Part shown: piece after piece, positions 2,952-40,577 of the stretch | Numbering within the stretch: the stretch's first letter is position 1 | Layout of the letters: each line of letters starts with the position of its first letter | The notes under the pieces: generated by a model | What the model was told of the DNA's origin: nothing | Databases searched by the model: none | What the model saw: the letters and a program-made list of their open reading frames with translations, nothing else | Origin: a virus | Lineage: Duplodnaviria; Caudoviricetes | Reading direction: 5' to 3' (one strand) | Length of the DNA: 40,930 bases | Virus record (IMG/VR): IMGVR_UViG_3300020045_006991 | Coordinates: 1-40,930 of that record | Made by a program: the position numbers and the translations under genes

Positions 2952-3170
2952 ATGACAACATTAAAAACTGGCTATTATCAAGCTGACACTGCAAACGGAG
3001 TTTCGTACATCGGCGATATTTTAGAAAATTCTGAACAGGATGTTTTGCCAGCGGGATTATTTGCAGAGTCGCTAGAAGATTTAGAAGATGGCGAAATTAT
3101 CGTCGCTTTTTTCGATATGGAAACATTCGGTATTTTAGAAAACATCGAAAAACATTATTCAATCAATTAA
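2952..3170 (+). CDS. Acidic hypothetical protein
   Basis: 72-aa D/E-rich ORF with AGGTG RBS; first gene after the promoter. Confidence 0.7.
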   Translation: MTTLKTGYYQADTANGVSYIGDILENSEQDVLPAGLFAESLEDLEDGEIIVAFFDMETFGILENIEKHYSIN

Positions 3171-36674: not shown

Positions 36675-36702
36675 AGTTTAACAGGATGGTTATAATTGTC
36701 AA
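36675..36702 (-). promoter_or_regulatory. Promoter for recombination operon
   Basis: TTGACA-16 bp-TAAACT with TG extension. Confidence 0.6.
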
Positions 36703-36721: not shown

Positions 36722-36946
36722 TTAATTATCCGATTCAAACTTTTCACAGCCTTTCGATTCATCACAACAAGCCTTTTCAAATATGTAACCACCAGCGCAA
36801 AATTGCCCACCATTGAGCTTTTCTTGTACAACCCTAGTGACCATAGCGGGTGTTGCTCCACGCGCCTTGTAGGATTCAATCTGCATACATTTTCCCCACC
36901 CATCTAACTCCGTACTATGATCTTTTAAGAAGTGCTTACAAGGCAT
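36722..36946 (-). CDS. Cys-rich 74-aa protein (intact copy)
   Basis: MPCKHF.....DGWGKC...CEKFE; GGGAG RBS lies inside the GIY-YIG gene end. Confidence 0.7.
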   Translation of the reverse strand: MPCKHFLKDHSTELDGWGKCMQIESYKARGATPAMVTRVVQEKLNGGQFCAGGYIFEKACCDESKGCEKFESDN

Positions 36947-37713
36947 TTTTTAGTCTCCCATCTGGCTTTATTTTTTGCGGCTATAATTTCGCGATTAGCT
37001 TCACGATATGCTTTGTTCCTAGTGGCTATAATTTCGCGGTTTTCATCTTTGTAGGCTTTAGCTTTTGCCGAGATAGATTCAAAGTTAGCCTCATAGTAGG
37101 CTTTTCTCTGTTCGGCAATGGATTCTTTGTTTTTCTGTTTGTAGGCTTTTTTGTATGCCGATGCTAATCCCTTATTTTTTTCTCGGTATGCTTTTTTTTG
37201 TTCCGCTATTTTTTCTTTGTTAGCATCAAGATAATACTTCCTTTTTGGCTTTCTATTTTCATAAATCACTTCTTTATTCTTTTCACGATAGGCTTTGTTG
37301 TAATCCGCAGCCGCTACTTTATTGGCTTTATAATATGCCTTGGTTCGTATTGCGTGGGCTACTTTATTTGCTGAATAATATGATGCTGATTTCGCCTTAT
37401 CCCTAGCAATCCTTTCTTCGCCATAAATACCAACAGTTAAAACTCCTTCGCCGCCTAGTGTTAGGTTATACCCGCCTTTGCCAAGCGTATTAAACTTTTC
37501 AATCGCCTCCATTTCAGCTAAACACAGAAGTTCCCAATTATCACATTCAGCTAAAACTGTTAAAACTACGTTTTCTTTGCCGTATTTTTTAATGGCGCGT
37601 TGACAGGCAGTTTTCTTTTGCCTGCAATGTGCGTTAAAACGCTCGTTTGCGGTCTTTGAGGTAATTCCGATGTACTTTTTGCCATTAGGGAATGACAGTT
37701 GATAAAGTTGCAT
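36925..37713 (-). CDS. Free-standing GIY-YIG endonuclease with helical KAYREKNKE repeats
   Basis: LYQLSFPNGKKYIGIT...RF..H...E...GYNLT.GG; start revised to ATG 37713. Confidence 0.88.
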   Translation of the reverse strand: MQLYQLSFPNGKKYIGITSKTANERFNAHCRQKKTACQRAIKKYGKENVVLTVLAECDNWELLCLAEMEAIEKFNTLGKGGYNLTLGGEGVLTVGIYGEERIARDKAKSASYYSANKVAHAIRTKAYYKANKVAAADYNKAYREKNKEVIYENRKPKRKYYLDANKEKIAEQKKAYREKNKGLASAYKKAYKQKNKESIAEQRKAYYEANFESISAKAKAYKDENREIIATRNKAYREANREIIAAKNKARWETKKCLVSTS

Positions 37714-37816
37714 GATAAATCCTTGAACTTGGATTATTGAACAGAAAATTAATGTGGCTTGTCCTTGTTCAAGGGGTTTTCGGACTCGATTTCCTAGCCA
37801 CGTTGTTATTATAACA
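37714..37816 (-). ncRNA. Structured leader RNA 2 with extended -10 promoter
   Basis: TGtTATAAT 37808-37816; stem 37796-37804 with 37751-37759; CCUUGAACA complementary to 37737-37743 and 37721-37728. Confidence 0.7.
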
Positions 37817-37823
37817 TAAATCG

Positions 37824-37898
37824 CTAGGTTATTTTGGCGCACTTCCCCCAGCCGTCTAGGTCGGTGGAGTGGTCGGGGGTGAAATGCTTGCAGGTCAT
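37824..37898 (-). pseudogene. Truncated 5' copy of the 36722-36946 gene
   Basis: MTCKHFTPDHSTDLDGWGKCAKIT*; 16 of the first 20 aa identical; AGGA RBS. Confidence 0.8.
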
Positions 37899-37916
37899 AG
37901 TATTTTTCCTTTAAAG

Positions 37917-38199
37917 TTAATCTACCTAGCCTAGGTAACTACCTAGGTAGATTAAAAACGCTATAATTACTTTATAATCATGCGGTTATGTAAATCTAGG
38001 TAGATTAGGTAGATTAGGTAGGTGTTTTTGTGTGTGTGTAAAAATAGCTAAAAATAAGGTAAAAAAAGATAACAGTAACTACTACTACCTAACCTACCTA
38101 TATATACATTTTATACCTTACACCGCTCTATTTTACTGGATTTCAACCTAGGTAGATTGTCTACCTAGATTCTACCTAGTCTACCTAGTTTTTAGGTAG
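37917..38199. repeat. Iteron-like TAGGTAG/CTACCTA cluster, putative replication origin
   Basis: 13 perfect heptamers in both orientations around an AT-rich core, directly downstream of the primase-helicase gene. Confidence 0.75.
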
Positions 38200-38201
38200 C
38201 T

Positions 38202-40577
38202 CTATTTTACGCTAAGAACCTTTTTCTTTTTTTCAATCTCACAAACAAGTAACCCGCTTTCAATCATCGAGTCGATAGTTTTGTTCATGTATTCGTTTTT
38301 ATCACCACTGTGTGCCTTGAATGGTAAAACGCACTTTATTAGCTGCTTAATCTCAGTGTTGGTTAGTTTTTTCCCACTAAGAACTCGAATTACTGTTTCA
38401 TACGCCGCTTTATCACCTGTAACTCCTTTATTGGCTAATAAATGAGCGTGCGACACTACAAGGGCGTTATAGATTCTTATTGCCGAATCTATGTGTTTTG
38501 ATGCTATTTGATTTACATAATATCCACCATCTAAAACGTGCAAATTAGCCGCTATTTTGATAATATGTATATCGGATTTCCCGCAAAATCCACGCATTGC
38601 CGAAGCTGAAAATTTCTTACCATCATCAAAATGACTGTAAAGAGACTGGTAATAATCTGATATTTTTACATGGTCAGAATTTGAAATAGTTAGCATTGGT
38701 AGCATATAAAATTGATGCTGTTCCGCAAAGGAGTCACCAATCAAGAAGCCATCTATTAAGTCTTCACAAGCTGATGAATAGTCATCCATAATACTTTTAT
38801 TGGTAGCTCTAAGCTCGATAGATTCTGAAAAACGATGCCTTTCTATCAACTTTAAAAAGCGTTCGCCCATTCCGCTACTTCCACTTGACTTTAAGAGGGT
38901 ATCAACACTACCCTCTTGAGCAAAGCAAATAATCGATCCTATCGGCTTTCCTTCGTAACCATCGCGCCCAGCCCTAAGAACATTCATTTTTGAACCATCG
39001 AACGCACTTAGAACAAGGTCATTATTATTCTTTGAGTCGTCTTTTTTATACATTCCACCGATCAAAGAATCAAATATCCCCTGCTCGCTAGATATACAGC
39101 TAAAATACCCCTTTGAATCATTTAACTTTGATTCAATCCCTTCTGGCGTAGCGTTGGTTATTTCATTTGTTTTAGTAAACCCCTTAAAAGCCGATTCTAT
39201 TCTTGAAATGCGCGCAAACTCTTCTTTATCCTCTTTTGATATGAGTGATTTTTCATCACGAATTTGCTTAGATTTTTCGATGTATCGTTTTTCAAATGGC
39301 GCGTAAAATGTGGATAAAATCCTAGTTTTAGATGTCGCTGTAGACTGTTCAAAAACTGCATACATATTAGTCGGGATTGCCCTACCGTTACGCTCAACCG
39401 ACATTGCACGGCAAAGCAAAGCACTATGAACTGCTAAACCAGCAAGTAAAATAGAGCTAGGTTTTATAGCTGTTACCGCACTTAATTCTAACGCCATTCG
39501 CTTTATAATGTGGTCATCAGACACATACTGCAAAAGGTCAACATCGCAATATTTATTTTCATTATCTAAAACATCACATTTTATTTTATCAATTACGGGT
39601 TCTGGGTTGGTGTCGCTAAACCTATAATAATCATCGGGGAAGTGGGGTTCTACAGAATCGCGTTCTGCCTGATAGTACGATCTATTCCTATCGCCTTCGA
39701 CTGGTTGTGACCTTCCAGCATCAAGCCCATCCATTACCGCCTTTCTTTCTCGGCGTGTAATTTGTTCATTATCACCATTGGAGCTGCAAACAAAATCACT
39801 GGAACGAATAAGCGCAGAAATCATTGCATTTTCATCAACAAGATTTGCAGCAATATACCCGCCGCCCAATTTACCGGCTCTAATACGAGCCGCGTGAAAA
39901 TCCCCTTTAGTTGCGCTCATAATGATATTGCAAGCGCGTGATATGTACTTTTGTTCTGTCTCTTGTGAGTTGATAATAATATTATTGTTATTAGATGGCG
40001 CGTAAGATTTGCATGATTCTTTCTTTTCGGATAAATCTAGTATAAGAGCGGGGGCATTAGTGTTCACAATAATTTCAGAGTCATAACTAACAAAGCATAG
40101 CCTTCTTACATCTTTGCATTGCTCATCTATTTTTATGTTATGAGCTTTCAAGTAATCTCTTACTTGAAAAAAAGCCCTTTTAAAATCATCATCGCTGTTT
40201 ATTAAGTTGTCTGGTATGCGTATAAGTCCCTTCAATCCATGCCTTGAAGGGCTTAGCCACAATGCGACAATCTCTGGTATTTCATCAATAATTCTTTCTT
40301 TCTCTGCCTCTACATCATCAATCCCGTCAATATCTATGTGAAATAAACCGTTCGATGATGTGAAGTTTTTATTGATTATATTACCATTAAACGCGCCACT
40401 AAAAGACCATGCTGGAAGCCTAGTTTTAGCCTCCTTGTACTCTACAGAACCATAAGCGGGTAAACTATCTATCGACCTCTTAAATTTCCCGTATTGAATA
40501 TCGCGCAATATCTCCTCTACATCTAAATATTGATGCTTACTGGTGTCAAAAACACTACTTAGGTAGATTGCTTGCAT
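38202..40577 (-). CDS. Primase-helicase fusion (BT4734/VirE-N-like plus DUF3987-like)
   Basis: K..LPA..FSG.F, IDID, SPS.HGLK, D..CKDV.RLCFVSYD; degenerate Walker A TATSKT, ATPEG, SSE. Confidence 0.82.
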   Translation of the reverse strand: MQAIYLSSVFDTSKHQYLDVEEILRDIQYGKFKRSIDSLPAYGSVEYKEAKTRLPAWSFSGAFNGNIINKNFTSSNGLFHIDIDGIDDVEAEKERIIDEIPEIVALWLSPSRHGLKGLIRIPDNLINSDDDFKRAFFQVRDYLKAHNIKIDEQCKDVRRLCFVSYDSEIIVNTNAPALILDLSEKKESCKSYAPSNNNNIIINSQETEQKYISRACNIIMSATKGDFHAARIRAGKLGGGYIAANLVDENAMISALIRSSDFVCSSNGDNEQITRRERKAVMDGLDAGRSQPVEGDRNRSYYQAERDSVEPHFPDDYYRFSDTNPEPVIDKIKCDVLDNENKYCDVDLLQYVSDDHIIKRMALELSAVTAIKPSSILLAGLAVHSALLCRAMSVERNGRAIPTNMYAVFEQSTATSKTRILSTFYAPFEKRYIEKSKQIRDEKSLISKEDKEEFARISRIESAFKGFTKTNEITNATPEGIESKLNDSKGYFSCISSEQGIFDSLIGGMYKKDDSKNNNDLVLSAFDGSKMNVLRAGRDGYEGKPIGSIICFAQEGSVDTLLKSSGSSGMGERFLKLIERHRFSESIELRATNKSIMDDYSSACEDLIDGFLIGDSFAEQHQFYMLPMLTISNSDHVKISDYYQSLYSHFDDGKKFSASAMRGFCGKSDIHIIKIAANLHVLDGGYYVNQIASKHIDSAIRIYNALVVSHAHLLANKGVTGDKAAYETVIRVLSGKKLTNTEIKQLIKCVLPFKAHSGDKNEYMNKTIDSMIESGLLVCEIEKKKKVLSVK

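Follow-up and report, generated by a model that had tools for sequence, protein, structure and literature searches.

The window analysed here is the whole of virus record IMGVR_UViG_3300020045_006991 (40,930 bp), a complete record with direct terminal repeats that encodes terminase, portal, capsid and tail-fibre genes. The locus under study has a primase-helicase gene and origin-like repeats on one side, and an Erf/exonuclease/ssb block on the other. It holds a gene for a small Cys-rich protein of 74 aa, the target gene, which gave no PHROG and no Pfam match, together with a nuclease gene and a second, truncated copy of the target gene start. The features are given below from upstream to downstream; loci used for comparison carry L numbers.

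38202..40577, minus strand: primase-helicase-like replication gene, upstream context (phrog_2373 helicase, E 7e-57; phrog_18375 primase/helicase; DUF3987 and BT4734-like N-terminal part)
37920..38200, no strand: origin-like CTAGGTAG/CTACCTAG repeat cluster, flanked by the replication gene and the stub, 7 matches in 37900-38200
37907..37911, minus strand: native RBS AAGGA of the original gene start, read from the sequence
37824..37898, minus strand: stub, original codons 1-24 plus TAG, 75-87% identical over codons 1-20 to five uninterrupted heads
37808..37816, minus strand: extended -10-like box TG-T-TATAAT, 6 nt ahead of the leader, with TATAAT invariant in 6/6 aligned leaders
37754..37801, minus strand: leader RNA core with a GTGG...CCAC closing stem, third hairpin loop TTGAAC at 37772-37767, predicted three-way fold
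37720..37742, minus strand: two GTTCAA sites complementary to the leader loop (37742-37737 and 37728-37723), the second overlapping the nuclease RBS AAGGA (37724-37720)
36925..37713, minus strand: GIY-YIG-type nuclease, 262 aa, catalytic domain 1-92 followed by 15-residue helical repeats (phrog_314, E 3e-20)
36947..36978, minus strand: nuclease 3' tail with the replacement RBS GGGAG (36959-36955), identical in L001, where it is the sole part of the nuclease retained
36875..36946, minus strand: replacement head, codons 1-24, element-borne; tail plus head differ from L001 at 2/104 nt
36722..36874, minus strand: 3' part of the target gene, background-type, codons 25-74 and stop, 96% identical to L084 vs 65% to L001 over 17 codons from YIF

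The CTAGGTAG/CTACCTAG cluster is a putative replication origin, and relatives carry different repeat units at its site. The 74-aa gene is a constant linker between swappable modules (window 36722-38200, L001, L083-L087, L090), these being replication modules (DUF3987, DUF5906 or others), which each bring a repeat unit of their own, and recombination modules. Directly after it, at 36675-36702 on the minus strand, a strong sigma-70-like promoter, nearly identical in L090, drives the Erf block.

A preliminary description of this DNA had presented the stub (37898-37824) and the intact gene (36946-36722) as two copies of one gene start separated by a nuclease cassette, and its observations were reproduced. 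The translations agree, the first 20 residues match at 16 positions, and 12 of the 14 identical degenerate residues are spelled with other codons. The RBS of the intact gene, GGGAG at 36959-36955, and its first codons lie within the 3' end of the nuclease open reading frame, which ends at 36925 and overlaps the intact gene by 22 nt. The intact gene is a full 74-codon frame, of a length like that of uninterrupted alleles. At the DNA level stub and head share 37 of 60 nt, with a longest common exact word of 6 nt. We collected 148 GIY-YIG loci, 15 of which had flanks too short, leaving 133 testable ones (window included, some redundant). The stub/head protein alignment scored 106, far above the distribution for these 133 loci (median 39, 90th percentile 63), so that the likeness is not due to chance; nothing else in the six frames of the window scored above 34 against the head. 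The TAG of the stub follows codon 24, ACC, directly, and at codons 21-24, right at the junction, stub and head encode different residues.

Invasion of the coding sequence without splicing, as had been proposed, agrees with the stop at the end of the stub, the duplicated head, and an Rfam search of the window, in which none of 8 matches at E<=5 was an intron family. A group I intron or an intein was rejected on these grounds, namely the terminal TAG of the stub, the duplication of codons 1-24 and the lack of Rfam support.

The nuclease matches the homing endonuclease family phrog_314 (PHROGs, E 3e-20); no Pfam match was obtained, nor any PDB match by sequence. Family TIGR01453 hits it at E 1.7e-9 with 38 bits, below the cut-off of 56.05, and many of its homologues carry PF01541. 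The predicted N-terminal domain of 92 residues (pLDDT 91.6) has the I-TevI catalytic domain (1ln0) as its top three PDB matches, with TM 0.74, prob 1.00 and E values from 2.2e-3 to 5.1e-3, none reaching E<=0.001. Residues Y4, Y14-I15-G16, R25, E67 and N83 are invariant across 20 sequences, and we take them to be the counterparts of the I-TevI catalytic residues. As modelled, the N-terminal domain is of the GIY-YIG fold and I-TevI-like. Beyond it, a 15-residue repeat is apparent (46 matches at lag 15 vs at most 21 at other lags); relatives of the nuclease keep the catalytic domain and exchange the C-terminal part. A longer reading of 305 aa from GTG 37842, inside the stub, was discarded because homologues start with MQLY, which corresponds to ATG 37713 and 262 aa; the same leader-derived N-terminal extension is called in 1 of 120 listed homologues (P0048). 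A protein atlas returned only unnamed viral clusters, at 0.88, which is a lead at best.

Relatives of the target gene were found at nine loci (8 viral, 1 metagenome). The protein search gave 10 representatives at E<=0.001, of which the final 3 were weak or driven by repeats; there were none in genome contigs and one distant relative in phage records, and L002 was dismissed as a chance match. Within the sequence examined, the gene is single-copy at 8 of the 9 loci. Five single-copy loci, L083-L086 and L090, are close (62-73%) and place it directly after the replication region. They supply the uninterrupted alleles with which, according to the preliminary description, the cassette should be compared, and four of them have a stub-like 5' end. 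Over codons 1-20, identities to stub and head respectively were 87 and 67% for L083, 75 and 67% for L084, 82 and 63% for L085, 87 and 63% for L086, and 75 and 80% for L090. Because four of the five are closer to the stub than to the head, L090 being the exception, we regard the stub as the native start and the head as the newcomer. The RBS and stub stretch (37921-37831) is 82% identical to uninterrupted L086. The ACC at codon 24 is common to the window and L001 stubs and absent from all five uninterrupted alleles. One protein, P0005, is native-type at residues 2-8 and head-type at residues 21-25; it may represent either the donor lineage or the outcome of an excision.

At the ninth locus, L001, a stub of its own runs straight into the 32 nt that precede the head, and the head and the full gene follow; the nuclease is absent from the entire record, which is 62% complete. 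Over tail and codons 1-24, 2 of 104 nt distinguish the window from L001, as against 15 of 69 in the next 69 nt (Fisher p 2e-5), and their stubs are only 73% alike. The replication genes belong to different families, DUF3987 in the window and DUF5906 in L001. In its flanks L001 resembles L083 (85% over 2.8 kb upstream, 76% downstream), and the window resembles L086 (89% over 2.2 kb downstream). Between these backgrounds the right boundary of the head is at codon 24-25, where the stub ends. The proposal that the replacement head belongs to the mobile unit thus holds well: the head travels between backgrounds, with its boundary at the stub-end codon. A 151-nt lake contig (run X1, depth 2, weak) contains the tail and the head up to codon 31, then 24 letters of L085 type (20/24 nt to L085, at most 10/24 to five others). 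A second lake contig carries 150 nt of the nuclease end, and since it overlaps the first by only 14 nt their link is unproven; comparison of run X1 with L085 found nothing. Judging from these sequences, the head is present on two, perhaps three, backgrounds, with a boundary at or just after the insertion codon, which is the pattern expected from homing with short co-conversion.

We therefore favour, as the probable explanation, a unit composed of the nuclease with its promoter-like box, leader, new RBS and foreign codons 1-24, which would have inserted at codon 24 and would spread by homing without splicing. In a mixed infection, the enzyme would cut the uninterrupted allele near codon 24, and the unit would be copied in during repair, which would engage the recipient's head to the left and codons 29-35, which are well conserved, to the right. 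Each recipient would then keep its own stub and its own 3' end, and the head gained would be the same in all of them. Immunity of the occupied allele would follow from the splitting of its site and from the altered junction of the rebuilt gene, where codons 21-24 encode other residues. A filter, and not directed recoding, would maintain the divergence of the head, since a near-identical repeat of 72 nt would let recombination delete the element. Later deletion of the nuclease would leave stub, tail and head, as in L001. In favour of homing we count the recurrence of the same design with other GIY-YIG nucleases at other targets (L160 ssb, L109). Against it we count that only one fully occupied allele is known; that the sequence to either side of the gene is mosaic in these phages, which would allow ordinary recombination to move the block too; and that L001 has two heads without nuclease, L090 is nearer to the head, 0 of 9 close relatives have a spare head, and the family scores are under the curated cut-off. 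A tail pattern search for more occupied alleles returned only the L001 contig and one chance match, and an RBS-region pattern search returned none.

Relatives carrying both copies without the nuclease had been named in advance as refuting the mobile cassette, and L001 is literally such a relative; we nevertheless read it as a loss of the nuclease after homing, because its retained tail continues the nuclease repeat at the protein level. The opposite order of events, in which mosaic recombination produced an L001-like partial duplication and a free-standing nuclease later entered the dead stub, with no homing at the target gene, seems to us quite unlikely. The two heads of L001, the intergenic position of close nuclease relatives and the highly mosaic flanks would fit it, as would a weak match of the tail to target codons 24-33 (24/2000 shuffles, best of 7 offsets). 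At the DNA level the tail is indeed equally close to the preceding nuclease repeat and to native codons 24-33 of L084/L086 (16/30 in both cases). As protein, the tail scores +9.5 bits, in register, on a profile of 84 homologous repeat units of the nuclease (7/5000 shuffles), while native target codons score -9 to -24 on this profile and the tail only -0.7 bits on the target-family profile. In addition, a shared old duplication does not explain stubs that differ by 27% beside tail and head that differ by 2%, nor does this order of events account for the recurrence of the pattern with other GIY-YIGs at other genes. Two minor features of L001 may be mentioned. The reading frame of its stub stays open across the nuclease tail and terminates 22 nt into the head (L001:4001-4126), and its stub and own head have in common a 14-nt run, including K8, that is in no uninterrupted allele and hints at local gene conversion.

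The nuclease may also have its real target elsewhere, and have been transposed here a single time, by faulty repair, with a piece of a foreign allele, the block then moving passively or by co-conversion. The single fully occupied allele agrees with such an accident, and so does the presence of catalytic-domain relatives at unrelated sites with different C-terminal domains. We consider it very unlikely, given that two, perhaps three, backgrounds carry the head and that the exchange boundary in them falls at the insertion codon or just past it.

Among the other GIY-YIG loci, twelve had at least 60% identity to the nuclease, and nine of these were validly tested; L097-L099 were dropped, as a premature stop had made the test a self-comparison. 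In these three near-identical records the close relative of the nuclease has a stop at codon 7 (3001-3021). None of the nine had a spare head (scores 29-42), and close relatives are intergenic. The expectation that other copies of this nuclease would show the same stub and recoded pair thus failed; a spare head was discarded as a trait of the nuclease family, and belongs to the insertion site. High scores of L105, L063, L059, L148 and L019 were put down to low-complexity matches. Among distant GIY-YIG loci, gene starts are repeated at L160, L109 and, weakly, L149, and gene ends at L047 and L108/L112. The clearest layout is that of L160:2924-4271, on the chromosome of the cultured bacterium Methylobacter luteus (NZ_KE386569.1): topB, an 11-codon ssb stub, a GIY-YIG gene scoring above the TIGR01453 cut-off, then full ssb. 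Its stub and head agree in 10 of 11 residues, with 8 of 9 identical degenerate residues differing in codon. Uninterrupted ssb of three of the four other genomes of the genus (L174 was left out) matches the L160 stub at 29-30 of 33 nt and the head at 18-19. At L109:2814-3900, a methyltransferase-like gene-start stub precedes the GIY-YIG gene and a replacement head follows it, with 7/11 synonymous differences.

A promoter and a leader RNA had been counted as parts of the unit from the start, and they do recur across loci as a conserved nuclease-associated unit. The TATAAT box is a putative promoter; a two-hexamer promoter scan did not call it at 37808-37816. The leader layout was found in 9 distinct leaders (window plus 8) with at least 4 different loop sequences, and in 3 more; the loci are window 37720-37816, L163-L169, L004 and L183-L186. 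Stability of the leader alone is not significant (z -1.11), and no Rfam match near the gathering score was seen, either in the window or in 5 leader-bearing loci. The loop and twin 6-nt sites of the window were matched by 1 of 2000 shuffles, and loop and sites change together across loci. Applied to the 9 leaders, this twin-match test was significant for 5 (at most 7/2000 shuffles), borderline for 2 (33 and 60) and weak for 2 (364 and 395). We believe the leader to resemble c4-type antisense RNAs; its likely role would be to restrain nuclease translation, acting either in cis or as an antisense RNA. The genes behind the leaders are nucleases of several families (GIY-YIG, HNH, T5orf172-like) and once a 51-codon remnant without family match. 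Because several close nucleases lack it, the leader is a separate module. In L183, L185 and L186 it is preceded by TATAAATA, presumably a T4-late-type box.

Elements of comparable design have been published, and are compared here on the accessible parts of the sources. The preliminary description had set the cassette apart from intron and intein homing, which stands, but the principle itself is already in print for WHO elements and mORFs, and partly for MobA. WHO elements of Torulaspora home without intron or intein, replacing the 3' half of FBA1 and leaving fragments (bioRxiv 10.64898/2026.08.13.744650). In both cases an element-borne variant part restores the host gene and the old part stays as a fragment, with polarity reversed here (5', not 3'). 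WHO elements, as far as that source goes, combine LAGLIDADG and zinc finger, the 3' half of the essential yeast gene FBA1, tandem clusters and demonstrated self-resistance; here we find a GIY-YIG, a 5' head whose new RBS lies within the nuclease frame, a small phage gene and no cluster.

In the fungal mitochondrial mORFs of Allomyces atp6 and Glomus atp6/atp9/cox2/nad3 (PMC3630166, PMC7487136), an endonuclease brings along the end of a foreign gene; identity to relatives is 91-98% for the native end that was displaced, as against 64-81% for the inserted one. GIYs duplicated with the atp9 N-terminus are mentioned in one survey (PMC7487136). The displaced native part is likewise nearer to relatives here, for four of the five uninterrupted alleles, L090 being the exception. 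The mORFs, in the parts of these reports at hand, mostly replace C-termini in organelles, and the inserted end is read there as horizontally acquired; ours is found in a phage, supplies a 5' head and comes with a promoter-like box and a leader.

In T4-like phages, the new start made by MobA overlaps the nuclease frame, out of frame, by 8-32 nt; the replacement region is 67-81% identical to its parent, a GIY-YIG can replace MobA, and the nuclease is often lost and the cargo kept (bioRxiv 10.1101/2022.08.31.505936). The present element is similar in being a phage element inside a coding sequence, in its new start overlapping the nuclease frame (by 22 nt) and in its homologous replacement region. 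With MobA, as described in the accessible part of that work, the native stretch is lost and the protein ends up as two subunits, with CTE/NTE and a bypass cassette; the present element leaves the native head behind as a stub and restores a single full-length protein. With T4 seg/mob and I-TevI (PMC2988022) the nuclease has in common the GIY-YIG fold, modular C-terminal domains and RNA control of translation, and its close relatives sit between genes as T4 free-standing endonucleases do. The T4 enzymes are intergenic or intron-borne, with no duplicated gene head in the accessible part of that source; there were also none in the part of the Skunavirus paper available. No phage description of stub, nuclease and replacement head was found in the literature searched, which misses most subscription papers. 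By analogy, the element would work like a WHO element or mORF with reversed polarity, and is a member of neither family.

The large codon difference between stub and head had suggested synonymous recoding. Over codons 1-24, 13 of 15 identical degenerate residues differ in codon, exceeding all 21 native-native pairs, which are not independent (144/351 pooled, range 0.14-0.68). Set against 7 native heads, 72/105 such residues of the head differ in codon, again with non-independent pairs, and codons 25-47 of the same gene differ from uninterrupted alleles at 23/70; by these counts the head is foreign. Selection at synonymous sites, driving the head of this same mobile cassette apart so that it escapes self-cleavage or excision, would predict such counts, as well as the 8/9 of L160 with 10/11 residues identical. 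A precedent is WHO6, in which 33% of synonymous changes gave resistance (bioRxiv 10.64898/2026.08.13.744650, in the part available). We judge such selection unlikely. The observed 12/14 fits saturation under window codon usage (9.0 expected, P=0.059), and the count is inflated because GC3 of the stub is 0.90, as against 0.40 in the head and 0.33-0.44 in six other window genes. L109 gives only 7/11. Moreover, L090 has TGT3, GAT9 and AGT11 in common with the head, which sits on a long branch of the tree and groups with L090 at 100/99 support. Hence the difference in codons is confirmed, and a directed process is unsupported. Most likely the head is a captured or long-carried divergent allele; such an allele, retained because similar heads get deleted by recombination, would suffice as an account. 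The amino-acid changes at codons 21-24 could be as good a candidate for the putative self-protection as the synonymous ones.

A more general reading, which we hold possible but doubtful, would see head-replacing homing elements as the prokaryotic counterpart of WHO elements at large. Unrelated nucleases would invade the first codons of phage and bacterial genes (M. luteus ssb), with a start held by selection at maximal synonymous distance that blocks self-cleavage and excision, and would be kept in check by a leader RNA, portable and hitherto undescribed, with a loop that pairs to two sites in the RBS region. If true, selfish nucleases would have a splice-free entry into coding genes of phages and bacteria, a route that the WHO paper, in its accessible part, calls a rare third category of homing element (bioRxiv 10.64898/2026.08.13.744650). 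It would also explain some short 'pseudogene' duplicates beside nucleases, and make N-termini chimeric. The present locus offers uninterrupted alleles, an occupied allele and a nuclease-lost scar together, and cultured M. luteus has the same design in ssb.

Some of the distant loci show other arrangements. At L047:1290-2115, L108:870-1639 and L112, a second copy of the upstream gene's 3' end lies behind the GIY-YIG gene, or in its tail. At L149:2880-3790, part of a virus record of 368 kb, the GIY-YIG gene has on either side a weak repeat of a short gene start together with its upstream sequence.
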